This document shows, piece after piece, positions 1-41,185 of a stretch of 43,110 nt of DNA. The notes beneath the pieces are model-generated. The model was not told the DNA's origin and made no database searches. It saw only the letters and a list, made by a program, of their open reading frames with translations. The stretch lies in assembly GCA_964638985.1 (NCBI GenBank), contig CAZXCD010000002.1:379-43488 (forward strand), written 5' to 3'. The translations under genes and the position numbers were made by a program. Position 1 is the stretch's first letter. Every line of letters starts with the position of its first letter. Source of the DNA: an uncultured Candidatus Saccharibacteria bacterium. Its GTDB lineage: Bacteria > Patescibacteriota > Minisyncoccia > Phycocordibacterales > UBA9973.

Positions 1-234
1 CTGAAGGAGGAGAATCAGCGGGATCAGCTGGAGCTGGGTCTACGGGGGCCGGTTCAACAGGGGCAGGTTCACCACCTCCCCCCGCCTCGGCGGGCGAGCC
101 TTCGGGTACTCCTCCTTCTGAAGGAGGAGAATCAGCGGGATCAGCTGGAGCTGGGTCTACGGGGGCCGGTTCTACGGGTGCTGGATTTGAACCACCACCA
201 CCCCCGCTTCCTGCGGGTACTCCTCCTACACTAG
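1..234. repeat. 117-nt (39-codon) tandem duplication inside the 3' part of the surface-protein CDS
   Basis: Positions 1-55 and 118-172 are identical (ctgaaggaggagaatcagcgggatcagctggagctgggtctacgggggccggttc). The second halves have diverged. The array may continue past the window edge. Confidence 0.8.
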
Positions 235-2746
235 GAGGAGAGGCGAGCAATGCATCAAGTTGAGATTTTGTGATACAGGTCTTCGCTCCTGTGTCATCCG
301 AGACGCACAAGGACTTCGTTTCTATTTCTCCGACGAAAATTTTAGCGATACCGTTCGTGGCATCCGCGAGCCAGGTGGTGAGCTTGGAGAGAAGGCGGGA
401 GAAGAAAGAACCACCTCCCTCGCTTTCTGCGAGTACTCCTCCTTCCAAAGGAGGAGAGGAAACATCAAGCGATAATACATCTTCCAAGTTCAAATTCATT
501 TCCTTTATGGCATTGATGGTTGCGGCGAGGATGGTCGTGGTGTTGACCTGTCTGTATCCCGAAGGATTTATATTGACCGCCTCCGGGATGGCTGACTCAA
601 TATTCTGAGCGATGAAGCCGGAATAATTTATTCCTCCGTCATAAAGTCCGGAATTTTCTCTCCAAGAATATGTTTCTGGATTGATTTGCATAATGCTTGC
701 CAAGCCTGCGGTAAATTCTCCGTGGAGATCTTTTAATCTTTCATCAGAGGTACAGCTCATGGTACCGCTTCCGTTGGTCTGAATGCCTCCGCAAGAAACC
801 AAGCTCACAGCGCTGACCACTCCAGCATTGGTGACGTTGAATTGTGTCACCCCTCCCACCTGTGCGTCAATTAAGTACTGTGCTCCCGAACCCACAGATG
901 TTTCTGTCCTGTTTATTAGAAGGTCGGTATTGGCGGCAGTAGAAGCAACTTGGTTGTAAATTGGAGCGATTTTTAACGCGCCATTTGTTCCAGATACTTG
1001 AGAATGTGTACCACCTCCAAGAGTTACCGCAAACCTACTGGCTGTTGAATAACTGTAACTATTTAGAGTGAATGTGGTATTCGTGTTGTAAGGACCTATC
1101 GAGTCAGTGTTTATTAACCCTGTAGCCCATAAGTTTCCAGTATTTATTAATCCTGGTGTTGTTATATTTCCCGCCTTACTTACCTTAAACAAATTCGTCG
1201 TCCCAGCTGCTCCGCCTAAAATCTGCATAGCCAAAGAAGCAGAATTGGAAGCAGTATCAGTAATAACAAACTTCAATCCCGTAGGTGCTCCTGTCGTATT
1301 CCAAGTCTGAGCAAGATTAAGAAGAGAGCCAGCGAGAGAACCAGAACCTGCAAGGTAAGTATCATTCATCACGAGAGAACCCGTGGTAGTTTCTATCGCT
1401 CTATAATCTGCCGCAGCGGTAAGATTTGAGCTTATGTAAAGCCCACGAGTTATTCCATTAGCTCCACCAGTTTGATTAATTGTTCCACCTATATTCAAAT
1501 TTGTGTAAGTTCCCGTTCCACTTGTAGGAGCAAAGGTTCGTGCAAAAATAGTGTTGGTATAATTACCTGTAGTGTTAGTTAAATTATCTCCAGAGAATCC
1601 TACTCCTATATCTCCAGCTGTTATAGAATAGCTAAAAAATCCAAGCCCTTTACCTGTTGGGTCAGGACCAGTATATGCTGCAGCAAGAAATGGAAATATC
1701 ACTGGAGCTTGTGTAGTATTAGTTCCAAATCTCAAAGCATATTTTGTTCTGATTCCTCCATCTGTCCAACTCGTCCCAGTAACTACATCGAGAGGGTAGG
1801 AGGGTGCCGCCGTCCCTATCCCGACGAGACCTGTCCCTAAAATTGTCATCGCTTCGGTAGCTCCATTGTTGCCTACTAGGAAGTGCATATCAGCACCGGT
1901 TGCTCCGATACCTGTGGTTGTTTTGAAAGTTAAATCTTGGGTTGTTGAAGAGCCTCCGATTAATAGAGGGCTGGTTAAAGAGTGTGTGCCTAAGTCTAGG
2001 TCTGTGGTAGCTCCTGTGTATGGGATGTAACCCGAAGCAGAAGCGTAATAGCTTCCGTCTTGTCCGTCTAAAAGATCTGCATTTAAATTTGAAACGAGCC
2101 CAGTGTTTGAAGTGGTCAAAGTGTTTGCTCCGAGGACGAGATTTCCACCCATGGTGAATCCAGCAACTGTCCCAGTGAATGTCGGACTAGTGAACATTGT
2201 AGCCTTGCTTTCGTTTGTGACATTGCCTAGACTCACATCACTAGCAGTGACGGTAACATCGGAAGATAAAGCATGGCCGTTTACCATTCTGGTATCTGGA
2301 ACAGCAGTAAATCCTAAAGCATTTTGTTTATTATTAAAAATATCCCAATCCGTATCTGAAAGTGCACCTGTGGTGGAGGTGGAAGACAAATCCAAACTCA
2401 ATACTTGAGTCGCAAGAGAGAGGCCGTTGGCCGATACGCCCAAAGAGATGGGGTCGTGACTGCCTGCAACGAGCCCTTCTATTTTGTCATAGAGAGCATT
2501 TTTGGATGGAGCATGTGTGGTATCTGTATCCCAGCCTGCCCCATAAACTGTGTCACTTATATTTAAAGAGGTAAGGGGAGCGCGGACATCACAGTCCACG
2601 TCAGTCGGCAGACATTCTGGATTTAAGGTGTCTCCCGGCTCGTAAAAAGTGCCATTCCAGACGGCAAAAACAGTCGGAGCAAAGAAGGAAAGTACCACAA
2701 TGACCGCGAATATTATTATTGTTTTTTTATTTAATAAAAAAGGCAT
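1..2746 (-). CDS. Large secreted tail-fibre-like surface protein with a Peptidase_S74-type intramolecular chaperone domain; the 3' end runs off the window
   Basis: Absent from the ORF track because it has no stop codon inside the window. My reverse translation from the ATG at 2746-2744 stays open to position 1 (915 codons plus 1 nt). The N-terminus MPFLLNKKTIIIFAVIVVLSFFAPTVFA looks like a signal peptide. The body is G/T/N/S-rich and fibre-like. SDERLKDLHGEF...YSGFIAQNIESAIPEAV...IKEMNLNL (about 748-497) matches the S-D-x-R-x-K autoproteolytic chaperone motif of tail fibres and endosialidases. Confidence 0.75.
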   Translation of the reverse strand, partial: MPFLLNKKTIIIFAVIVVLSFFAPTVFAVWNGTFYEPGDTLNPECLPTDVDCDVRAPLTSLNISDTVYGAGWDTDTTHAPSKNALYDKIEGLVAGSHDPISLGVSANGLSLATQVLSLDLSSTSTTGALSDTDWDIFNNKQNALGFTAVPDTRMVNGHALSSDVTVTASDVSLGNVTNESKATMFTSPTFTGTVAGFTMGGNLVLGANTLTTSNTGLVSNLNADLLDGQDGSYYASASGYIPYTGATTDLDLGTHSLTSPLLIGGSSTTQDLTFKTTTGIGATGADMHFLVGNNGATEAMTILGTGLVGIGTAAPSYPLDVVTGTSWTDGGIRTKYALRFGTNTTQAPVIFPFLAAAYTGPDPTGKGLGFFSYSITAGDIGVGFSGDNLTNTTGNYTNTIFARTFAPTSGTGTYTNLNIGGTINQTGGANGITRGLYISSNLTAAADYRAIETTTGSLVMNDTYLAGSGSLAGSLLNLAQTWNTTGAPTGLKFVITDTASNSASLAMQILGGAAGTTNLFKVSKAGNITTPGLINTGNLWATGLINTDSIGPYNTNTTFTLNSYSYSTASRFAVTLGGGTHSQVSGTNGALKIAPIYNQVASTAANTDLLINRTETSVGSGAQYLIDAQVGGVTQFNVTNAGVVSAVSLVSCGGIQTNGSGTMSCTSDERLKDLHGEFTAGLASIMQINPETYSWRENSGLYDGGINYSGFIAQNIESAIPEAVNINPSGYRQVNTTTILAATINAIKEMNLNLEDVLSLDVSSPPLEGGVLAESEGGGSFFSRLLSKLTTWLADATNGIAKIFVGEIETKSLCVSDDTGAKTCITKSQLDALLASPPSVGGVPAGSGGGGGSNPAPVEPAPVDPAPADPADSPPSEGGVPEGSPAEAGGGGEPAPVEPAPVDPAPADPADSPPS
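71..129 (+). repeat. GC-rich composite palindromic element (CPE) copy, inside a CDS and antisense to it
   Basis: caccacctcccc, then mini-hairpin cccgcc-tc-ggcggg, then gtactcctcctt-ctg-aaggaggag. On the CDS strand it reads SPPSEGGVPEGSPAEAGGGGE. Confidence 0.7.
190..238 (+). repeat. CPE copy inside a CDS
   Basis: caccaccaccccc, then cccgc-ttcct-gcggg, then gtactcctcct-acact-aggaggag. It encodes SPPSVGGVPAGSGGGGGS. Confidence 0.7.
411..458 (+). repeat. CPE copy inside a CDS
   Basis: ccacctccc, then tcgc-tttc-tgcga, then gtactcctcctt-ccaa-aggaggag. It encodes SPPLEGGVLAESEGGG. Confidence 0.65.
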
Positions 2747-2816
2747 ATTCTCATAGAGATACCATATATATTATACAACAAAAGTATGAGCTAATGTATG
2801 CAAAATGGGGATAAGT

Positions 2817-2861
2817 CTACCCCCTCCGTCATTCTGACACCTCCCCCTACGTAGGGGGAGG
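2817..2861 (+). repeat. CPE copy, intergenic
   Basis: ctaccccctcc... followed by a perfect hairpin cctcccccta-cg-tagggggagg (2840-2861). Confidence 0.6.
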
Positions 2862-2877
2862 CTGGGAAGGGGTATTT

Positions 2878-3246: not shown

Positions 3247-5275
3247 TTTTATTTAAAAACTTTGATAATTTCTCCCGTAAGGTATTACGATAGAAATTAT
3301 ACATTAATAATAATAAAACAACAATCAAAAGAACTGTTTGAAAATCAATTTTCTCCATCCACTTCGTGCTGGAACCGAGTTCTATGTTCTGGTGGATACC
3401 GCTTCCTTCCGCTACTACGAACACTTTCCCTCTGTAGGTGAGATAGCCCGGCGCCTCTACTTCAAAATAATAAGAACCTTCCGGCACCAGGAATGAATAA
3501 GTACCCCGGACATCCGTCACTTGAGGGTTTTCTTGTTGATAATCTTTCGCAGGCCAGAGTTCGTATTTCTTGGTAGTAGTATTTAAGTAATAAAGGGACA
3601 CGATGGCGGACGGAATGCGAGTTTCTTTGCCGCCATTTTTCTCAAAGACGTATCCCTCCGGGTCAATGACCGTGGTCATCCTCATCTGGCGAGTGCCCAA
3701 TACCGGATCTATGTAGTTGATGACGGTGATGATTTCGTATTCTCCCGGCACGATGGGGGAGACGACGTCCGCGGTGTATATGCCGTCATGGTCCGGGTCA
3801 ATGTATTCAAATGAGGAGAGAACTAATTTGTTTTCTACCTCACCCCCCGCCTTCCCCTGGAAAGGGGAAGGGGCTTGCTCAACAAAATTGTTCATAGAAA
3901 AAAGCGCGGAAGCGGTGAGAGAAGAACGAGGAATGCTGTTTTGAGAAATCTTCGGGGTGGGAGCTTTGAATACGAAATACCCCGTCACGCTACTAGCCTT
4001 GCTGATAGGCTTGACTACTAAGCGTAATGTCTGGCCGGGTAGAGTGGACATCTGCTGGGAGACTTCGCCCCTTTCTCCTACAGACAAAGCGACGTTTAGA
4101 TCAACGAGCTCTTGATTGGCGCGGGCGAAGACGAATTCCGCCGGAAGATTTTTCTTGGCGGAAGGGGAGAACTTCGCGATAGGCAAGCCTTTTATCAAAG
4201 CTATTTTACCCACACCCACGTTGTTCATCATTTGTCCGTCTAAATTGGAAAGCCCCGGAATGTTGATAGATACTCCATTCAACTTATCAATCTCGGACAA
4301 GTTTTCCAGTCCGACGGTGGTAATCGTTTTATCTAAAATGTTTGCCAATCCTGGAATATTCAAAGACACACCAGTCAACTTGCCCAAGTCGCTCAGCCTC
4401 TCTATTCCTACGCTTTTCAAAGTTTTATCCAATTCTGGAAATTTACTTGCGAGGATGCGGATATCATAAGGCAATGGAGCAAAGACGAAAGAACTGATGG
4501 CTTTTGCGGGTAAGATATTCCACAAAGCACTGAGGGCTTTCGGCGCGACTTTTGGAATTTCCGCTAAAGTTTCCGTGGAAGGCTTTTCTCCTCCAAATAA
4601 ATAAGAAAGAAAATCAGAGGCGTAATTGACTACGTTTGAAAGGTTGTCAAAGATGTCAAAGGGAGGAAGCGCAACAAAAGGAGGTGGCGTGAAAGGGGGA
4701 GGAGTAACGGGTGGAGGGTTGCGGGGAGCGGAGCCACTGGAACCGCCGGAACTTCGCATACTAGCCGGTCTCCAATCTGTTTTTATTTTGAAATCGGCCG
4801 AGGCGCAAGAATTTCCTGTCGCGCAATTGAAATTGATTTGACTGCTGTCGGATTTAAGAGTCGCATAACCTAGCAATTCTCCACTTGTGTTTATCGTCAC
4901 TCCTGTAAAATCAATCCAGCCCAGATTGGAACTCCAAGCGTAACCCGAGAGTACGCCCGCGCCGTCGTTTTTGACCCCTGAAGTCGTCGGGGCCAAATTT
5001 ATCCAGCCGAACTGACTACTCCAAGCGTTCCCGGTAATTTCGGTATCGGTAATTTGAACATTGCAATTATCACAGCCAAAATTTATCCAGCCGATGTTTT
5101 CTCCCCAAGCGTATTTGTATGCTCCATCAATGACCCCGTCGGTTTCGGAAGCAAGGGCGGAAGATGCCCTCGGTCGTAGCCCTACGGGTGAGACGAAAAA
5201 AACCAAAGAAAATAGAATTCCCAAAAAAAGCGCTTTTTTCCCTAAAAATGTATCTAACATAAAGATTTTAAGCAT
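3233..5275 (-). CDS. Large secreted repeat protein with a CarboxypepD_reg-like domain and a C-terminal TM anchor
   Basis: 680-aa ORF with a signal-like N-terminus. It has repeated W..N.GWI.F motifs (GWINFG, GWINLA, GWIDFTG) and a Pro-rich linker (PPVTPPPFTPPPF). RGTYSFLVPEGSYYFEVEAPGYLTY resembles a carboxypeptidase-regulatory fold. A hydrophobic helix lies at the C-terminus. Confidence 0.75.
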   Translation of the reverse strand: MLKIFMLDTFLGKKALFLGILFSLVFFVSPVGLRPRASSALASETDGVIDGAYKYAWGENIGWINFGCDNCNVQITDTEITGNAWSSQFGWINLAPTTSGVKNDGAGVLSGYAWSSNLGWIDFTGVTINTSGELLGYATLKSDSSQINFNCATGNSCASADFKIKTDWRPASMRSSGGSSGSAPRNPPPVTPPPFTPPPFVALPPFDIFDNLSNVVNYASDFLSYLFGGEKPSTETLAEIPKVAPKALSALWNILPAKAISSFVFAPLPYDIRILASKFPELDKTLKSVGIERLSDLGKLTGVSLNIPGLANILDKTITTVGLENLSEIDKLNGVSINIPGLSNLDGQMMNNVGVGKIALIKGLPIAKFSPSAKKNLPAEFVFARANQELVDLNVALSVGERGEVSQQMSTLPGQTLRLVVKPISKASSVTGYFVFKAPTPKISQNSIPRSSLTASALFSMNNFVEQAPSPFQGKAGGEVENKLVLSSFEYIDPDHDGIYTADVVSPIVPGEYEIITVINYIDPVLGTRQMRMTTVIDPEGYVFEKNGGKETRIPSAIVSLYYLNTTTKKYELWPAKDYQQENPQVTDVRGTYSFLVPEGSYYFEVEAPGYLTYRGKVFVVAEGSGIHQNIELGSSTKWMEKIDFQTVLLIVVLLLLMYNFYRNTLREKLSKFLNKNDGK
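3841..3871 (+). repeat. CPE copy, in frame inside the 680-aa CDS
   Basis: caccccccg followed by ccttcccct-ggaa-aggggaagg. It encodes ...APSPFQGKAGGEV... on the minus strand. Confidence 0.65.
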
Positions 5276-5479: not shown

Positions 5480-5553
5480 GCCGATATAGTTCAGTGGCAG
5501 AACACTACTTTCGTAAAGTAGGGACATGGGTTCGATTCCCATTCTCGGCTCCA
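5480..5553 (+). tRNA. tRNA-Thr (anticodon CGT), CCA encoded
   Basis: Acceptor gccgata/tctcggc (one mismatch), D arm gttc/gaac, anticodon arm ctact-ttCGTaa-agtag, T arm atggg-ttcgatt-cccat. Confidence 0.8.
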
Positions 5554-5561
5554 AAAAAATT

Positions 5562-6497
5562 ATGGAAAAAGATACGAACGAAATAGAAAATGAAATAGAA
5601 AAGCTTGAAGAGGAGATGCAGGCCCCTAACTTTTGGAACGATAAAAATAAAGCGCAGAATGTTTTAAAAGAACTAGCAGATTTAAAAAATAAAAAAGAAG
5701 GAACGAATAAATACGACAGGGGTAATGCTATTGTGACAATCATTTCCGGCGCTGGCGGGGAAGATGCGGAAGACTTCGGCGCGATGCTCTTCTCTATGTA
5801 TGTGAAATATGCGGACAAAATGGGCTTCAACGTTTTTTTAATTCACGAAAACAAAAATAACAGCGGGGGATACAGAAATGTTTCTTTTGAGATAACAGAC
5901 CCCACCCTACACCCTCCCCTTCGCAGGGGAGGGCACGGGGAGAGGTTAGGCCCGTATGGCATGCTCAAAAAAGAATCCGGGGTGCACAGGCTCGTGCGCA
6001 TTTCTCCATTTGATGCGAAAAAACTGCGTCACACGTCCTTCGCGCTCGTGGAAGTTTTGCCTAAATTTTCAAAACTAGAAGAAAAAGATTTTGTAATTCC
6101 ACCAGCAGATTTGAAGATAGAATTTTCCCGTTCGGGCGGTCCCGGAGGGCAGAATGTGAATAAAAGAGAAACGGCAGTAAGGATAGTCCACATACCCTCG
6201 GGCATAGCGGTGCATTCTTCCGAAGAACGGTCGCAAGAGAATAATCGCGAACGGGCGATGGCTATTTTGCGAGCAAAAATTTTCAAAAAAGCGGAAGAAG
6301 AGAAGAAAAGTGTGGAAGAAATATTCAAACAAAAGTCTACGGAGATAGAATGGGGAAATCAAATTCGTTCGTACGTGCTCCATCCGTACAAAATGGTAAA
6401 AGATCATAGGACTGATGCCGAGACATCGGATGTGGATGGAGTGCTGGATGGGAATCTAGACTTGTTCATAGAGGCGGAGAAAGATTTATTTACCTAG
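5562..6497 (+). CDS. prfB: Peptide chain release factor 2 (compact form, no programmed frameshift)
   Basis: SPF tripeptide (RISPFD), GGQ motif (SGGPGGQNVNK), GVHRLVR and WGNQIRSYV. I moved the start to ATG 5562, because the track start at 5526 lies inside the tRNA. The ORF is continuous, so no +1 frameshift site is needed. Confidence 0.9.
   Translation: MEKDTNEIENEIEKLEEEMQAPNFWNDKNKAQNVLKELADLKNKKEGTNKYDRGNAIVTIISGAGGEDAEDFGAMLFSMYVKYADKMGFNVFLIHENKNNSGGYRNVSFEITDPTLHPPLRRGGHGERLGPYGMLKKESGVHRLVRISPFDAKKLRHTSFALVEVLPKFSKLEEKDFVIPPADLKIEFSRSGGPGGQNVNKRETAVRIVHIPSGIAVHSSEERSQENNRERAMAILRAKIFKKAEEEKKSVEEIFKQKSTEIEWGNQIRSYVLHPYKMVKDHRTDAETSDVDGVLDGNLDLFIEAEKDLFT
5900..5933 (+). repeat. CPE copy, in frame inside prfB
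   Basis: ccccaccctaca followed by ccctcccct-tcgc-aggggaggg. It encodes DPTLHPPLRRGGHGERL, which has no counterpart in canonical RF2 between the ..EI and GxYGxLK..GVHRLVR segments. Confidence 0.7.
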
Positions 6498-7181
6498 GGT
6501 TCCCCTCGGGGATGGGGGTTCGAGAAATTCGGGAAGTTCTGCGCTAAAATCATCCACAATATTATTATAATTACAGATATTTTTTTCTCTGATAGGGAAT
6601 GGTTTTGCGTTTATTATTTTATAATTTTTAGATAAATATTCTTGCAGGCTGGAGTATGGATATTCAGCAATAAATTTTTTAAGTTGAGTCAAAAAGCTTT
6701 TTGGCTGTGTTTTCCACTTAGATTTTTTTAATTTTGCAGGGTTTAGGTGTATGTATGCGTAAATATATTTAAGGTATACATCTTCATCTATATGTTGCGA
6801 TTTAAAAACCCCTTGAAAAAGAGTTCCAACTCGATCAGTTTTTTTATTAAAGTACATTGAATACCCAGTCTGAAGCTTAAGCATAAATTTTGAAATACCT
6901 CCGTTCACAAGGGGAGTCAGTAGTAGATGAAAATGATTTGGCATTAAGCAATATGCACCAATTGCGACCAATGGTTCACCCCGATCTTTTTGGAATATTT
7001 CTTCTATTGAGTTAATTACTCCATAGTCTCTGAAGTGCAGTGGTTGATTGCTATTTGCGATATAAAGCAACATCAAGAATCTCTTGTAATCGGTAGAGTT
7101 CTGAAAAATAATCCTTTTTTCAACTCCTCGATTATATGCATGATAGAATTCTCCAATTTCAAATTTTATTTTTCTTTCCAT
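6486..7181 (-). CDS. IS200/IS605-like Y1 (HUH) transposase, REP-associated (RayT-type), copy 1
   Basis: HUH motif LMPNHFHLLL and catalytic Tyr motif YAYIHLNPAK. It is flanked by REP1 hairpins on both sides. Confidence 0.85.
   Translation of the reverse strand: MERKIKFEIGEFYHAYNRGVEKRIIFQNSTDYKRFLMLLYIANSNQPLHFRDYGVINSIEEIFQKDRGEPLVAIGAYCLMPNHFHLLLTPLVNGGISKFMLKLQTGYSMYFNKKTDRVGTLFQGVFKSQHIDEDVYLKYIYAYIHLNPAKLKKSKWKTQPKSFLTQLKKFIAEYPYSSLQEYLSKNYKIINAKPFPIREKNICNYNNIVDDFSAELPEFLEPPSPRGTLGK
6494..6511. repeat. REP1 hairpin (ctaggg/ccctag type) at the 3' end of RayT-1
   Basis: ctagggttcccctcgggg. It encodes the C-terminal ...PSPRGTLGK. Confidence 0.7.
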
Positions 7182-7209
7182 ATATTTTAGTAGTATAGCA
7201 CATTCTCTG

Positions 7210-7230
7210 CCTAGGGGAACCCTAGGGGAG
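7210..7230. repeat. REP1 hairpin upstream of RayT-1
   Basis: cctaggggaaccctaggggag, with stem ctaggg / ccctag. Confidence 0.7.
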
Positions 7231-11515: not shown

Positions 11516-11525
11516 GTAAGCGAGT

Positions 11526-11548
11526 TGAGCGAGGGTAGTCCTCGCTCA
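11526..11548 (+). repeat. REP2 hairpin
   Basis: tgagcgagg-gtagt-cctcgctca, a 9-bp stem. It lies between the convergent pyrG and membrane-protein genes. Confidence 0.8.
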
Positions 11549-11589
11549 CGCCGAGTAATTGTTATAATTTGCTCTATTTACTGGCACCA

Positions 11590-12465
11590 CTATTGAACTA
11601 ATAGGAAAAGAATTATTGAACTAACAATACAGAGGGTGCCGAGCCACATAAAAGGCGTAATTTGTTCTTTGTATTTAAAATGGCTGATGAAATAAGTTAC
11701 TGGAAAAGCTATGGTGCCTAAAATGGCTATAGTTGTTATCGGAAGATTAAAAATAAGCCATGAATCAATGAATGTTACCGCAACATTACCCAAAATAAAT
11801 ATTTTTCCATGGGGTTTTTTGACCAAAGAGGAAAAATCTTTAAATGGGTTTTTACCAACCATCCATAACCCAAAAATCCAAATGATAGTCCAGACTATAA
11901 GATCAACAACAAAGCGACCGGTAAAAAAAGCAAAAGTGTTCGGTACGTGGAAGCTTGCTAGTTTGTAGAATATAGAAGAAAATCCTGCAAGCACCACCGC
12001 CAGAATAGTGAAAATAGTCCCTCGATCAAATACAAAAAATCTATTCTCACTTTTCTTGTATGAGAAGAATATAACACCTAGAACTCCCAGGATAAGGGCG
12101 AAAACTGTCCAGCCATTCAATTTTTCATTTAAAAAAATTACTGCACATATACTACTCGATACAAATCCAAGACTGTGAATAACTTGGGTGGTAAAGAATT
12201 TTGTTTCAAGTAAGCCAAGTATTGTAAATATACCAACGATAGCGGCAATAATTACCAGAGCAACCCAATAAATGTAAAATAACAGGTCAGTAGGTAGTAA
12301 GAATAAACCCGTAAGAAAGAGAAGAGCAATTCCAATGGGATGTCCTATCAAATTAGGAACATGGGCGATAGTAAGCGGTGCAATTCCTTCCTCACCGAGG
12401 CGACGTTTGTACATGTTCCAGTATGGAACGGAAGCTTTGGTTAGAATTGTAATAAGGGTAAACAT
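11590..12465 (-). CDS. Polytopic integral membrane protein (possibly DMT/EamA-like)
   Basis: 291 aa with about 9-10 hydrophobic helices. I recognise no diagnostic motif. Confidence 0.55.
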   Translation of the reverse strand: MFTLITILTKASVPYWNMYKRRLGEEGIAPLTIAHVPNLIGHPIGIALLFLTGLFLLPTDLLFYIYWVALVIIAAIVGIFTILGLLETKFFTTQVIHSLGFVSSSICAVIFLNEKLNGWTVFALILGVLGVIFFSYKKSENRFFVFDRGTIFTILAVVLAGFSSIFYKLASFHVPNTFAFFTGRFVVDLIVWTIIWIFGLWMVGKNPFKDFSSLVKKPHGKIFILGNVAVTFIDSWLIFNLPITTIAILGTIAFPVTYFISHFKYKEQITPFMWLGTLCIVSSIILFLLVQ

Positions 12466-12479
12466 GGAATTAAATTATA

Positions 12480-13190
12480 TTAATACCTGAGCGAGGGTAG
12501 TCCTCGCTCAATTTCAATCAATGGTTTATTTAGCTGAAAGACTTTTTCTTGTGTTTTAAAATCTAATTTCATATCTTTTATATATTCTGGGATTTTAGAA
12601 AAATCTAGAATTACTGATTCTGGTCTATTTATAGATAAAAAATCTTGATAACTAGAGAATTGATATTTTTTTAGGAATTCTTCTGTTTCTTTTCTGTTTT
12701 TTATCCCATTTTCTTTCCATTTTTTATCAATAATTGAAATTGGATTGAGGTGTACATAAGAAAAGATATACACGTACTGCGACTCGTTGCTTATGTGCTC
12801 AGATTTAAAGGGGTGTGTGAATAGCGGACCGCTTCGCTCGTATTTTGTGTTGAAATACATTGAATATGCAGTCAAAAGTTTGCCCATAAATTTGCTTATT
12901 CCACCTTCACTGCCTTCATATAAAATTAAATGAAAATGATTTGGCATGAGGCAATATCCTAAAATAGAGACAAGAGTTCCTTCTCTTTTTTCCATGAATA
13001 TGTCTTCTAAACTTTTATTTTTATCGCGGAGAAAGTTTCCCATTGTAAATGGTGCGTCTTGGTTCATAATATACAAAAGAGCCACAAAGCGATTGTAGTC
13101 TTTTGTGTTCATGAATATTTTGCGTTTTTCTACTCCACGAGAGTAAACATGATAATGTTCACCAACGGCAAGGGATGTTTTTCTATACAT
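12480..13190 (-). CDS. IS200/IS605-like Y1 (HUH) transposase, REP-associated (RayT-type), copy 2
   Basis: LMPNHFHLIL and YVHLNPIS motifs. It is flanked by REP2 copies. Confidence 0.85.
   Translation of the reverse strand: MYRKTSLAVGEHYHVYSRGVEKRKIFMNTKDYNRFVALLYIMNQDAPFTMGNFLRDKNKSLEDIFMEKREGTLVSILGYCLMPNHFHLILYEGSEGGISKFMGKLLTAYSMYFNTKYERSGPLFTHPFKSEHISNESQYVYIFSYVHLNPISIIDKKWKENGIKNRKETEEFLKKYQFSSYQDFLSINRPESVILDFSKIPEYIKDMKLDFKTQEKVFQLNKPLIEIERGLPSLRY
12488..12510 (+). repeat. REP2 hairpin at the 3' end of RayT-2
   Basis: Identical tgagcgagggtagtcctcgctca. It encodes the C-terminal ..IERGLPSLRY. Confidence 0.8.
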
Positions 13191-13203
13191 ATATTCATTA
13201 AAT

Positions 13204-13226
13204 TGAGCGAGGGTAGTCCTCGCTCA
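13204..13226 (+). repeat. REP2 hairpin 13 nt upstream of the RayT-2 start
   Basis: Identical tgagcgagggtagtcctcgctca. Confidence 0.8.
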
Positions 13227-13242
13227 ATTGCTACGTTTCTGG

Positions 13243-36283: not shown

Positions 36284-36895
36284 ATGTTTCGGTTTACAAA
36301 AAAAGAAGAATCACTGCTGAAAAAATTAAACACTCCGGCCAAGGCGCAGGATTTTTTGAATGCTCTTCGGTTTAATTTTGAAGAGAAGGGAGAGACCTTG
36401 AAGTCTCCGCTTTTCACTCTCAGGGCAAAGAATGCACATTGTCTGGAAGGGGCTCTGCTCGGGGCTTATATCTTGTCTCTGCACGGCTTTACCCCGTATG
36501 TGATGCACCTGAAGGCTATTAGAGAAGACTATGACCATGTGATCGCCCCATTTAAGGTTGGGGGGCTCTGGGGCGCGCTTTCTAAGACTAACCACGCAGT
36601 TCTGCGTTATCGTGAGCCTGTTTATAAGAATATCCACGAGCTCGTGATGTCATACTTTCACGAATATTTTTTAGACAACGGAGTAAAGACTCTCCGGAAA
36701 TATTCTGGACTCCTTAATTTAAATACTTTTGAACAAGGTTGGGAAAGGGAAGACGGCAACCTGTGGGGGATAGATGAAGAACTGGACAAGATAAAGCACT
36801 ACGATATCCTACCTAGGGGAACCCTAGGGAAACTTCGCAAAGCGGACAAGGTTGAAATTCGGGCGGGAAAAATCGTGGAATTTAAAAGACGTTGA
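36284..36895 (+). CDS. Hypothetical protein, possibly transglutaminase/cysteine-peptidase-like
   Basis: 203-aa ORF. NAHCLEGALLGAYIL...DYDHVIAPF suggests a Cys-His dyad. This is weak. Confidence 0.35.
   Translation: MFRFTKKEESLLKKLNTPAKAQDFLNALRFNFEEKGETLKSPLFTLRAKNAHCLEGALLGAYILSLHGFTPYVMHLKAIREDYDHVIAPFKVGGLWGALSKTNHAVLRYREPVYKNIHELVMSYFHEYFLDNGVKTLRKYSGLLNLNTFEQGWEREDGNLWGIDEELDKIKHYDILPRGTLGKLRKADKVEIRAGKIVEFKRR
36812..36830. repeat. REP1 hairpin, in frame inside the CDS
   Basis: cctaggggaaccctaggga encodes LPRGTLGK, the same peptide as the RayT-1 C-terminus. Confidence 0.7.
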
Positions 36896-38838: not shown

Positions 38839-39333
38839 TTATTCCAATTTCCACTCAAGAATGTCCCCATCCTTAAGCACGTAAGAAGAAACGCCGACAG
38901 TCGCTTCTTTACCGTTAATATAATAAAGCAAGTCTTTCCCATCCCCAGAATGAAGCGCGCCGATATCGGTTAGAAAGAATCCCAAACCGGGATATTTTTT
39001 CCCAGAAAAAGTAATGCCGCCGGAATTTTTCGCTTTCATTAACGCGTCATAAAAGGTGGTACTTGCGGGGACGGATAGAGTTATTTTTTCTTCTCCGAAC
39101 ATGACAGTCACATTTTCTGTATTTTGGGCAAGAAGAGGTTTTAGGGTCGGTTTCGTTTCTTTTATTACCCTCTCTGCCTCCGGCACCTCCCCTTTAACAA
39201 GGGGGAGGTTGGGTGGGGGTGCTATAATGGTAATTTTTTGGGGGGATAAAAATATAAATATAAAAAAAGCTATAAAAGCAAGAATTAATCCAATTGTTAA
39301 AATTATTTTTTTGTTTTTCATAAATTTTGACAT
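38839..39333 (-). CDS. Membrane-anchored DUF4430-like protein
   Basis: TM helix, then TTFYDALMKAKNSGGITFSGKKYPGLGFFLTDIG...LLYYINGKEATVGVSSYVLKDGDILEW (DUF4430 pattern). It ends 4 nt upstream of the next gene. The start is ambiguous (39333 or 39321). Confidence 0.7.
   Translation of the reverse strand: MSKFMKNKKIILTIGLILAFIAFFIFIFLSPQKITIIAPPPNLPLVKGEVPEAERVIKETKPTLKPLLAQNTENVTVMFGEEKITLSVPASTTFYDALMKAKNSGGITFSGKKYPGLGFFLTDIGALHSGDGKDLLYYINGKEATVGVSSYVLKDGDILEWKLE
39186..39221 (-). repeat. CPE copy, in frame inside the DUF4430 CDS
   Basis: The reverse complement reads cacccccacccaa followed by cctccccctt-gtta-aaggggagg. It encodes APPPNLPLVKGEVPE. Confidence 0.65.
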
Positions 39334-39582: not shown

Positions 39583-39617
39583 CCACCCCTAACCCCTCCT
39601 TTATTAAGGAGGGGAGG
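39583..39617 (+). repeat. CPE copy, intergenic
   Basis: ccacccctaa followed by cccctcct-ttatta-aggagggg-agg. Confidence 0.65.
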
Positions 39618-40047: not shown

Positions 40048-40100
40048 CACCACCCCTTTCGACTAAAGTCGAAATGCCCCTCCTCCACAAGGAGGGGAGG
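40048..40100 (+). repeat. CPE copy (full composite form) upstream of the DUF559 gene
   Basis: caccacccc, then tttcgac-taaa-gtcgaaa, then cccctcct-ccaca-aggagggg-agg. Confidence 0.75.
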
Positions 40101-40113
40101 ATAAAAAATTCGC

Positions 40114-40479
40114 ATGAAAATTATTCATAATGTAACTAAATTATTAGAAAGGAGAAAAGAACTCAGAAATGAGAGTACGCCGGAAGAAATTCTGCTGTGG
40201 CTACAACTTAAGAATTCAAAAATTGGCTTCAAGTTCAGGAGACAACATAGTATCGGAGGATATATTGTAGATTTCTACTGTCCAACCAACAGAGTGGTGA
40301 TTGAAATTGATGGTTTGCAACATTCTAAAAAAGAAAACAAAGAATACGACAAAATCAGAAGCAAGTATTTGGAAAGTTTGAATATAAAAGTTTTACGTTT
40401 TACAAATTTGGAAATAAGCACAGAAACACAGAAGGTTGTGGATAAAATAAAAGAGGAACTTACCACCACCCCTGACTAA
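40114..40479 (+). CDS. DUF559 (Vsr-like endonuclease fold) protein
   Basis: FRRQHSIGGYIVDFYCPTNRVVIEIDGLQH...KVLRFTN is the DUF559 signature. Confidence 0.8.
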   Translation: MKIIHNVTKLLERRKELRNESTPEEILLWLQLKNSKIGFKFRRQHSIGGYIVDFYCPTNRVVIEIDGLQHSKKENKEYDKIRSKYLESLNIKVLRFTNLEISTETQKVVDKIKEELTTTPD

Positions 40480-40513
40480 AAGTCAGGTACTCCTCCTCAT
40501 TAAGGAGGAGAGG
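40464..40513 (+). repeat. CPE copy overlapping the DUF559 stop
   Basis: caccacccc, then ctgact-aaaa-agtcag, then gtactcctcct-catta-aggaggag. It encodes the C-terminal TTTPD*. Confidence 0.75.
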
Positions 40514-40524
40514 GTGCTTGAATT

Positions 40525-40570
40525 CCTCCCCTCCTTGTGGAGGAGGGGTGCCATTTATGGCGGGGTGGTG
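40525..40570 (-). repeat. CPE copy, inverted orientation
   Basis: The reverse complement reads caccaccccgccataaatggcacccctcctccacaaggaggggagg. The large hairpin is identical to that of copy 40048-40100. Confidence 0.75.
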
Positions 40571-41133: not shown

Positions 41134-41156
41134 ATCCACAATCTTCTGTATCTAAG

Positions 41157-41175
41157 TGAGGACTTCCCTCGCTCA
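41157..41175 (-). repeat. REP2-like copy (inverted, partly truncated)
   Basis: The reverse complement reads tgagcgagggaagtcctca. Confidence 0.55.
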
Positions 41176-41185
41176 ATTATTTATT

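Follow-up and report, generated by a model that had tools for sequence, protein, structure and literature searches.

How does the gene for an essential translation factor come to carry a perfect DNA palindrome within its reading frame? The question is raised by prfB, encoding release factor 2 (RF2), on a contig of an uncultured Candidatus Saccharibacteria bacterium (CAZXCD010000002.1, assembly GCA_964638985.1), of which 43,110 nt were analyzed (positions 379 to 43,488; the whole of this stretch is referred to as the window). The extra DNA is most likely a selfish or neutral repeat of the triplex type, which a permissive turn of RF2, now a hot spot of sequence turnover in this lineage, tolerates and presumably carries in translated form.

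In the window, prfB is a single open reading frame (ORF) of 311 aa (5562–6497, plus strand), which starts 9 nt past the end of a tRNA-Thr(cgt) gene (5480–5553) and is not preceded by an obvious Shine-Dalgarno sequence. Compared with solved structures, its product matched RF2 chains best (E 1e-68, versus 6e-45 for RF1); it contains the PCRF (PF03462) and RF-1 (PF00472) domains, with the SPF and GGQ motifs both intact. Expression of prfB is usually autoregulated by a +1 frameshift. Here, the ORF is uninterrupted, without a programmed +1 frameshift, and the N-terminal part of domain 1 is shortened, which is why the product (333.6 bits) stays below the cut-off of the curated NCBIfam model TIGR00020 (370). 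Both features are common to the whole RF2 clade, whose members are ∼294 aa long without inserts and partly lack domain 1 compared with RF2 of E. coli and B. subtilis (window 5562–5720). The ratio of nonsynonymous to synonymous substitution rates (dN/dS) of the gene was about 0.06–0.14 and, outside the loop dealt with below, 0.057, 0.078, and 0.060 versus the homologs at loci L204, L002, and L001, respectively (L numbers designate the loci collected for comparison). Thus, prfB is under strong purifying selection and, judged from these ratios, functional, as the preliminary description of this DNA had concluded from the intact motifs; together with the clade-wide shortening, this argues for a divergent RF2 and not for a pseudogene.

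Comparison with the relatives delimited the additional DNA as follows:

5895–5954, plus strand: variable segment of 20 codons (TDPTLHPPLRRGGHGERLGP) versus 5 in insert-free alleles (e.g., QGRGV, xGKNA), from alignment to L002, L124, and other loci at the DNA and protein levels
5897–5947, plus strand: 51-nt run identical to the insert of L001, the rest of the two genes being 78% identical with a synonymous divergence (dS) of 1.68, from pairwise comparison
5912–5933, no strand assigned: perfect 9-bp hairpin CCCTCCCCT-TCGC-AGGGGAGGG, its arms consisting purely of pyrimidines and purines, respectively, from sequence and fold

Relative to insert-free close relatives, prfB has gained 45 nt (15 codons), in frame and free of stop codons. 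An insertion of ∼51 nt had been proposed before; the net gain is the smaller figure. In the insert-free allele of L002, the site reads GAG ATA CAA GGT AGG GGT GTT TAT GG, and L124 has GGT AAG GGT GCT; the corresponding proteins of close relatives read EIQ-GRGV-YG or EIx-GKxx-YG. The window protein, in contrast, reads ..YRNVSFEI TDPTLHPPLRRGGHGERLGP YGMLKKESGVHRLVRISPFD.., and ∼17 residues between ..SFEI and YGML.. remained unmatched when it was aligned to solved RF2 chains. The earlier notion that canonical RF2 has no room for these residues was borne out, and they are missing from the closest relatives, too. The site is a short turn in domain 2, ∼20 residues upstream of SPF; in E. coli RF2, it corresponds to about S184–Y187 (counted back from S205-P206-F207). 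An AlphaFold2 model based on a 32-sequence alignment was of moderate quality (mean predicted local distance difference test score, pLDDT, 67.6) and placed the insert as coil, with pLDDT below 50 at residues 119–128, between a predicted strand (104–112) and a predicted helix (131–138).

On the DNA level, 5900–5946 reads CCCCACCC-TACA-CCCTCCCCT-TCGC-AGGGGAGGG-CACG-GGGAGAGGT, preceded by GA, with the box CCCCACCC at 5900–5907 and the stem arms CCCTCCCCT and AGGGGAGGG at 5912–5920 and 5925–5933; the in-frame palindromic element at 5899–5950 reads as originally described. None of the dinucleotide shuffles of the window reproduced the hairpin. As RNA, 5895–5955 was predicted to fold with −29.7 kcal/mol (z −2.4) for the plus strand and −36.2 kcal/mol (z −3.2) for the minus strand; the energy models used apply to hairpins only, and triplexes were judged by sequence triad rules. 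The ends of the insert pair imperfectly (GACC..GGTC), and the G-rich box GGGAGAGGT can also form an outer stem with GACC...CCACCC.

The size range of such inserts (45–56 nt), the GC-rich hairpin, and the AT-rich host are reminiscent of translational bypass elements, so that the insert might be skipped or removed during expression, as in the translational hopping known from GC-rich mobile inserts of yeast mitochondria and from T4 gene 60, if it is not simply an artifact of assembly. Either is scarcely credible. The window allele is present in groundwater metagenome runs and recurs in independent assemblies and runs, which argues against an assembly artifact. The frame is open throughout 5895–5954, with no stop codon following a take-off codon and no matching pair of take-off and landing codons, and every insert observed is in frame and stop-free. 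Among the assembled contigs of the runs X1 and X2, the window allele is represented by a single one each; an apparent skip of the insert in X1, considered as a loss within the population, was rejected because it is the empty, L002-type allele of a different, co-occurring strain.

If the insert were an inherited part of RF2, its distribution should follow the gene. With the loop masked, DNA identity to the window prfB was 86.0% for L204, 82.8% for L002, and 78.4% for L001, and L001 was itself nearest to L206 (88.5%) and L207 (88.2%). The inserts are partitioned differently: that of the window equals that of L001, L204 and L206 share another (type B, with the ends TACCCC..GGGGTA), L207 has a GTAG-type hairpin of the repetitive extragenic palindromic (REP) kind, and L002 has none. 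The insert of the window is, thus, missing from its nearest relatives, while the same 51 nt occur unchanged in the more distant L001; likewise, the type B inserts of L204 and L206 are identical over 62 nt at a dS of 0.89. A neighbor-joining tree of the 120 closest proteins (loop masked) mixed empty alleles, filled alleles, and insert classes. Insert types therefore disagree with the gene tree, and this mismatch, together with the inserts having diverged too little, indicates that the insert is repeat DNA and not an inherited protein loop. The empty L002 allele (GGTAGGGGTGTT) had been considered as the footprint of a type B deletion; this was rejected, because it corresponds to the ancestral GGT AAG GGT GCT (G-K-G-A) with two substitutions. 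Different inserts also occur side by side: three related populations in sample 3300037810 carry three of them (type A′, L001; type B, L206; GTAG-type REP, L207), and sample 3300014208 contains two (type B, L204; GTAG-type REP, L208).

Of the 120 RF2 proteins most similar to that of the window, about two thirds contain an insert in this loop; the inserts add 5–34 aa and fall into more than 10 sequence classes. Among 80 more distant relatives inserts are mostly absent, a five-residue turn x-G-K-x-x being the rule, as it is in RF2 of E. coli and B. subtilis. In the commonest class, DPTL[RH]PPLxKGRVGE[GR]SGP, differences are confined to the hairpin loop and the spacer, the stems being constant. 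Some short inserts resemble decayed copies, e.g., SSPDKGRVGGVGP, in which the right arm alone is left. Other hairpins occupy the same loop, namely CCTGCCTG-CCGG-CAGGCAGG (translated as LPAGRQG) in L162 and L163, and TCCGCC-AACT-GGCGGA in L140 and L159. The former is found in frame at three different places of RF2 genes from other Patescibacteria (L162 1771–1847, twice; L152 1157–1176; L163 2720–2739), the second L162 copy being one turn upstream and the L152 copy elsewhere in the gene.

Loops of similar sequence are, thus, shared by relatives (DPTLRPPLxKGRVGE.. in many), which on its face is what the preliminary description had named as refuting its interpretation. The interpretation nevertheless stands, because the shared loops are copies of the same DNA element, their distribution does not match the gene tree, and their variation lies in the hairpin loop and spacer, where a nucleic acid element would be expected to vary. 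It is very unlikely that the RF2 clade inherited the loop vertically from early on and lost it repeatedly, without mobile DNA being involved. The DPTL[RH]PPLxKGRVGE sequence and a GPYG junction common to many relatives would fit such a history; yet the wider clade has the short turn, the inserts are far less diverged than their flanks, and the same sequence is found outside prfB and in other phyla. By the tree mismatch and the divergence data, this history appears largely refuted.

The diversity of the loop could alternatively be adaptive for the protein, for example against phage factors that target release factors or as a fit to the cell's own ribosome, with repeats providing no more than the raw material. 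In favor of this, length and sequence are extremely diverse at this one loop, whereas the rest of RF2 is highly conserved and the neighboring FtsE and FtsX are constant in length in the same genomes; a proline, moreover, always follows the insert. However, the variation obeys rules of DNA structure (stems are kept, loop and spacer vary), many lineages have retained the five-residue turn, and the loop is predicted to be disordered. To our knowledge, no partner or phage factor of the RF2 loop has been described. Adaptive protein diversity is, thus, quite unlikely to be the cause.

What kind of repeat is involved was suggested by the arrangement of box and hairpin. The box mirrors the purine arm with T opposite A, and the G-rich strand yields only G.G-C and T.A-T triads. 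The possible third strands are:

5899–5933, minus (template) strand: purine-motif intrastrand triplex motif CCCTCCCCT-GCGA-AGGGGAGGG-TGTA-GGGTGGGGT, 9 of 9 triads allowed (G.G-C, T.A-T), from the pattern of PMC4666352
5938–5946, plus strand: another G-rich box, GGGAGAGGT, which could serve as third strand on the coding strand (8 of 9 triads), from the triad check

By its sequence, the prfB insert is a member of the intrastrand triplex motif repeats known as BoxC, PIT element, or TMECO (Holder et al, 2015; PMC4666352). In 262 proteobacterial genomes, these reach thousands of copies, and cyanobacteria contain many as well; they form a triplex in vitro and are associated with local genome instability; in E. 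coli, TMECO is strictly intergenic, and no mobility gene has been linked to it (PMC4666352). As purine-motif triplexes do not form in RNA (PMC4666352), any triplex of the insert would have to form in DNA, on the template strand.

The pattern CCCTCCCCTT-N(2-6)-AGGGGAGGG was found at 120 or more loci in species genomes, the hosts among the matches listed being Cyanobacteria, Alpha-, Beta-, Gamma-, and Deltaproteobacteria, Bacteroidota, Spirochaetes, and Saccharibacteria. In 111 of the 126 matches listed, the box CCCCACCC (at most one mismatch) flanks the stem on one side only, at a distance of ∼3 nt, as it does in the window. The family has reportedly also been treated by Bachellier in the 1990s and by Hoyne and Maher in 2000. 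No Rfam family matched the insert or any of 12 motif-bearing loci from other phyla, and a search of the literature by repeat sequence strings returned nothing relevant.

The likeness to BoxC/PIT/TMECO comprises the order of parts (C-rich stem, loop of 3–6 nt, G-rich stem, ∼3 nt, G-rich third strand), the multiple copies of very high identity, proteobacterial and cyanobacterial hosts, and the link with local sequence turnover. There are differences, too. The exact published pattern, CCCTCNCCC-N3-6-GGGNGAGGG-N3-GGGNGAGGG, does not fit the prfB insert with its stem CCCTCCCCT/AGGGGAGGG; the stem variant of the window is CCCTCCCC(T) instead of CCCTCNCCC, and loop 2 measures 4 nt or, in other copies, is replaced by a small hairpin. 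Nearer to the published pattern are "class C" RF2 inserts (SPLLxKERGxGVRS) and the 3′ end of E. coli ycjD, and a nested copy of class C type (L211 5977–6001) shares the C-T-C-T-C core of the stem with it. This copy lies in a region of nested repeats just upstream of prfB (L211 5941–6070), where a TMECO-like element with perfect 10-nt ends (ACCTCACCCC...GGGGTGAGGT) is found within a two-hairpin element, of which an uninterrupted copy is present at L211 4551–4630. Furthermore, the host here belongs to the Patescibacteria, 5 of the 11 copies in the window lie in frame within ORFs, as opposed to the intergenic TMECO of E. coli, and the motifs bracket genes of the DUF559 family, whereas the published set has no mobility gene.

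In-frame palindromic repeats inside genes are known from the Rickettsia palindromic elements (RPEs) and from intragenic GTAG/CGTC REPs (Di Nocera et al, 2013; PMC3733652). With RPEs (Ogata et al, 2000) and intragenic REPs, the RF2 inserts share the location of palindromes in coding sequences, including those of housekeeping genes, where they are tolerated as an extra surface peptide. RPEs, however, are 100–150 bp long and restricted to Rickettsia, whereas RF2 inserts comprise 45–56 nt and differ in host and sequence. Tagged REPs have a GTAG/CGTC end and are tied to REP-associated tyrosine transposases (RAYTs); no such tag occurs within 5895–5954. The small dispersed repeats and miniature inverted-repeat transposable elements of cyanobacteria, reportedly described by Elhai et al in 2008, are likewise very small, nested palindromes; nesting was observed here in L211.

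If the insert belongs to a dispersed family, further copies should be found elsewhere. Eleven hairpins with one all-pyrimidine and one all-purine arm were identified in the window, 10 by a hairpin scan (0 in 30 dinucleotide shuffles) and the eleventh, at 39186, by other scans. In 10 of the 11, the third-strand box fully conforms to the triad rule on one strand; random flanks used as a control reached ≥85% triads in 5% of trials. Five copies lie in frame inside three genes, namely prfB, an ORF of 680 aa, and a gene for a protein of >923 aa. Besides the prfB insert and three copies around a DUF559 gene (see below), these are:

109–456, minus strand: three in-frame copies with hairpins at 109–129, 220–240, and 436–456 (SPPxxGGV...GGGG), in the C-terminal part of the >923-aa protein
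2818–2874, plus strand: intergenic type B copy, TACCCCCTCC-small hairpin-CCTCCCCCT-ACGT-AGGGGGAGG-CTGGGAAGGGGTA, from repeat scan and fold
3837–3871, minus strand: in-frame copy in the 680-aa ORF (..SPFQGKAGGEV..; FQGKAGG at 3850–3871), from comparison with relatives
39186–39218, plus strand: intergenic copy, hairpin and third strand GGTGGGG, from repeat scan and triads
39583–39614, minus strand: intergenic copy immediately in front of a cytidylyltransferase gene, with 9 of 9 triads allowed on the minus strand, from repeat scan and triads

The copy at 2818–2874 shares its three-part architecture and its predicted Y-shaped fold with the prfB inserts of L204 and L206. That in the 680-aa ORF is also present in L002 and missing from the L001 ortholog. 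Part of the region 109–456 is a tandem duplication of 117 nt; the >923-aa protein itself (window 2–2770, minus strand) is of surface type, runs off the window, and is orthologous in this region to a Peptidase_S74 protein of L002. The preliminary description had called the insert "exactly" a repeat copy. It does belong to a dispersed family of the same architecture, but no identical copy occurs in the window. Neither was it aware that this type of element had been described already, or that the RF2 loop recurrently holds many repeats.

The occurrence of the family elsewhere also bears on the notion that the insert is a selected, cis-acting nucleic acid signal, be it an mRNA hairpin that pauses ribosomes or tunes RF2 synthesis, or a DNA structure that controls the gene. 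The 51 nt are identical between genes with saturated synonymous sites, the predicted RNA fold is stable (about −30 kcal/mol), and this prfB has lost the frameshift site, the usual means of autoregulation. On the other hand, the family occurs in intergenic DNA and unrelated genes, unrelated hairpins occupy the same site elsewhere (the GTAG-type REP of L207, CCTGCCTG-CCGG-CAGGCAGG of L162 and L163, and others), the closest relatives manage without an insert, and very high mutual identity of copies is general in this repeat family (PMC4666352). A selected signal is, thus, unlikely.

The tolerated triplex-type repeat accounts for these findings as follows. The 45 additional nucleotides represent a single copy of a BoxC/PIT/TMECO-type palindromic repeat, which is small, dispersed, and GC-rich. 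A repeat of this type consists of a hairpin, with only pyrimidines in one arm and only purines in the other, and a flanking box that mirrors the purine arm. Such a copy may have entered the turn in RF2 domain 2, or replaced an earlier repeat there. It would persist because its length is a multiple of three, its frame contains no stop, and the resulting Pro/Gly/Arg-rich loop, predicted to be disordered, is tolerated when translated. Its sequence would be kept at the DNA level, or have arrived recently, and not be kept as protein. The RF2 loop is, on this account, a recurrent site of landing or turnover in this (Nomurabacteria- or Paceibacteria-like) lineage of Patescibacteria. That the insert is neutral or selfish, and how it moves, we infer; at best, one may guess that it is moved by a nuclease with folded single-stranded DNA as its substrate, for which the DUF559 endonuclease is the candidate.

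From its open frame, the insert can be presumed to be translated. Several observations weigh against this account. No convincing target-site duplication was found at the prfB insert. Neither the window nor the contigs of the two samples with this genome contained a second exact copy of the prfB variant, so that a recent transposition is only a possibility; a 686-nt contig of another sample (X5) carries two partial copies of the variant, 300 nt apart and in a context other than prfB. The complete nucleotide identity between diverged genes could reflect a selected function. Finally, all filled alleles have G-P-Y-G after the insert, whereas empty ones have G-[AV]-Y-G. Instead of many independent insertions, one old insertion with subsequent turnover in place might explain this, as might selection on the protein, for example for a helix-capping proline; it could also be a feature of the ends of the element, as the recurring GP...GP pattern at the insert may stem from palindromic ends. 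Among the homologs, no frame-breaking insert was found, although this is a weak test, as the motif filter missed many loci.

Which enzyme might move such a repeat? No transposase with the same ends as the insert was found; only a unit around a DUF559 gene (40048–40570) shares them:

40048–40101, plus strand: element bracketing the DUF559 gene on its left, composed of CACCACCCCT, a small hairpin, and CCCCTCCTCCACAAGGAGGGG in this order, part of a 25-nt perfect inverted repeat
40114–40479, plus strand: gene for a DUF559 protein (Vsr-like endonuclease fold) of 121 aa, bracketed by family elements (PF04480, E 2e-32)
40463–40510, no strand assigned: copy downstream of DUF559, box and CTCCTCC hairpin, from repeat scan and triads
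40524–40570, no strand assigned: inverted right bracket of DUF559, ending GGGGTGGTG, from repeat scan and triads

The perfect 25-nt inverted repeat on the two sides of the gene is made of family elements, and the final codons, up to 40479, are encoded by a C-rich box. A profile search of the collected loci yielded only three more DUF559 genes, in L211 (Patescibacteria; 4060–4620), L121 (Mesorhizobium; 1130–1655), and L122 (a proteobacterial metagenome-assembled genome; 1480–2080), all of which adjoin triplex motifs. At DUF559 loci from a plasmid collection, motifs were present at one or both ends of the gene in 13 of 14 cases, and in many of these they overlapped the stop codon (Synechocystis, Picosynechococcus, two Deinococcus, Azospirillum, Sphingobium, Sphingomonas, Sinorhizobium, Methylobacterium, Shinella, Photobacterium, Neisseria, and E. 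coli; the exception was Thermoactinomyces). Taken together, triplex motifs bracket DUF559 genes at 17 of 18 loci from five phyla (the window, L211, L121, L122, and L212–L224), which makes DUF559 a candidate partner enzyme. In E. coli, the gene concerned is ycjD, which 62% of the complete genomes of this species contain; its 3′ end is a TMECO that matches the published pattern letter for letter. As a background control, 50 kb around each of two of these genes were scanned: in D. proteolyticus, the only two such hairpins both bracket DUF559, and in Sphingomonas, where the unit lies between sufB and sufC, two of six do so.

No paper linking DUF559 with triplex-motif repeats was found in the literature. 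Tentatively, DUF559 proteins, with their Vsr-like PD-(D/E)xK fold, may be the partners of BoxC/PIT/TMECO across bacteria, recognizing the folded G-rich strand and driving copying, exchange, and loss of motifs as RAYTs do for REPs, with the RF2 loop as a site of repeated cassette swapping. Like the small nuclease-type gene of REP/REPIN-RAYT systems ("REPtrons"), the DUF559 gene lies between inverted copies of a dispersed repeat; unlike RAYT, an HUH Y1 transposase, it has, as judged from its sequence, a PD-(D/E)xK Vsr-like fold. Hitchhiking of DUF559, or its preferential insertion beside the motifs, are open alternatives.

While the kind of element and in-frame repeats as a phenomenon were known already, their combination in Patescibacteria and prfB, the hot spot in the RF2 loop, and the association with DUF559 are new. 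Triplex-type repeats, deemed intergenic in E. coli, can colonize coding DNA, even that of an essential translation factor, and do so in hosts whose genomes are among the smallest and most streamlined of all bacteria. Odd Pro/Gly/Arg-rich loops and variation in length of Patescibacteria proteins are thereby explained, which helps annotation and the reading of alignments. The filled, empty, and swapped alleles at a single site constitute a natural series for studying movement and decay of repeats, and the RF2 loop is marked as tolerating 5–34 extra residues. The DUF559 link, if true, would provide the BoxC family, an orphan for 30 years, with a candidate enzyme and a large domain of unknown function with a role.

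The window also contains two RAYT-like genes, both associated with repeats of their own:

6486–7181, minus strand: RAYT-like Y1 transposase gene (PF01797)
12480–13190, minus strand: second RAYT-like gene (PF01797)

Both were considered as movers of the prfB insert and rejected, because they are flanked by repeats of other types. The first lies between prfB and a pilin-like gene, a position at which L002 and L204 have no RAYT, and is flanked by inverted CCTAGGGTTCCCCT(A/C)GGGGA repeats (6493–6512 and 7209–7228; a further copy is at 36812–36828). The stop codon of prfB is located inside the left one of these repeats, which adds two residues to the protein (..DLFT). The second RAYT gene is flanked by inverted GAGCGAGGGTAGTCCTCGCTCA, of which the window contains four copies (11522–13229 and 41149–41178), a REPtron-like arrangement with its own type of repeat. 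Two further features of the window concern its middle part. The region from 13 to 36 kb is lower in GC content (29–39%) and free of triplex-motif hairpins. Within it, TTTG(A/G)TATAAT-N(6-8)-ATG occurs directly before at least six ORFs between 16139 and 23722 (repeat families D1–D4); these motifs resemble extended −10 promoters and leave so little room in front of the start codons that leaderless or almost leaderless mRNAs would result.

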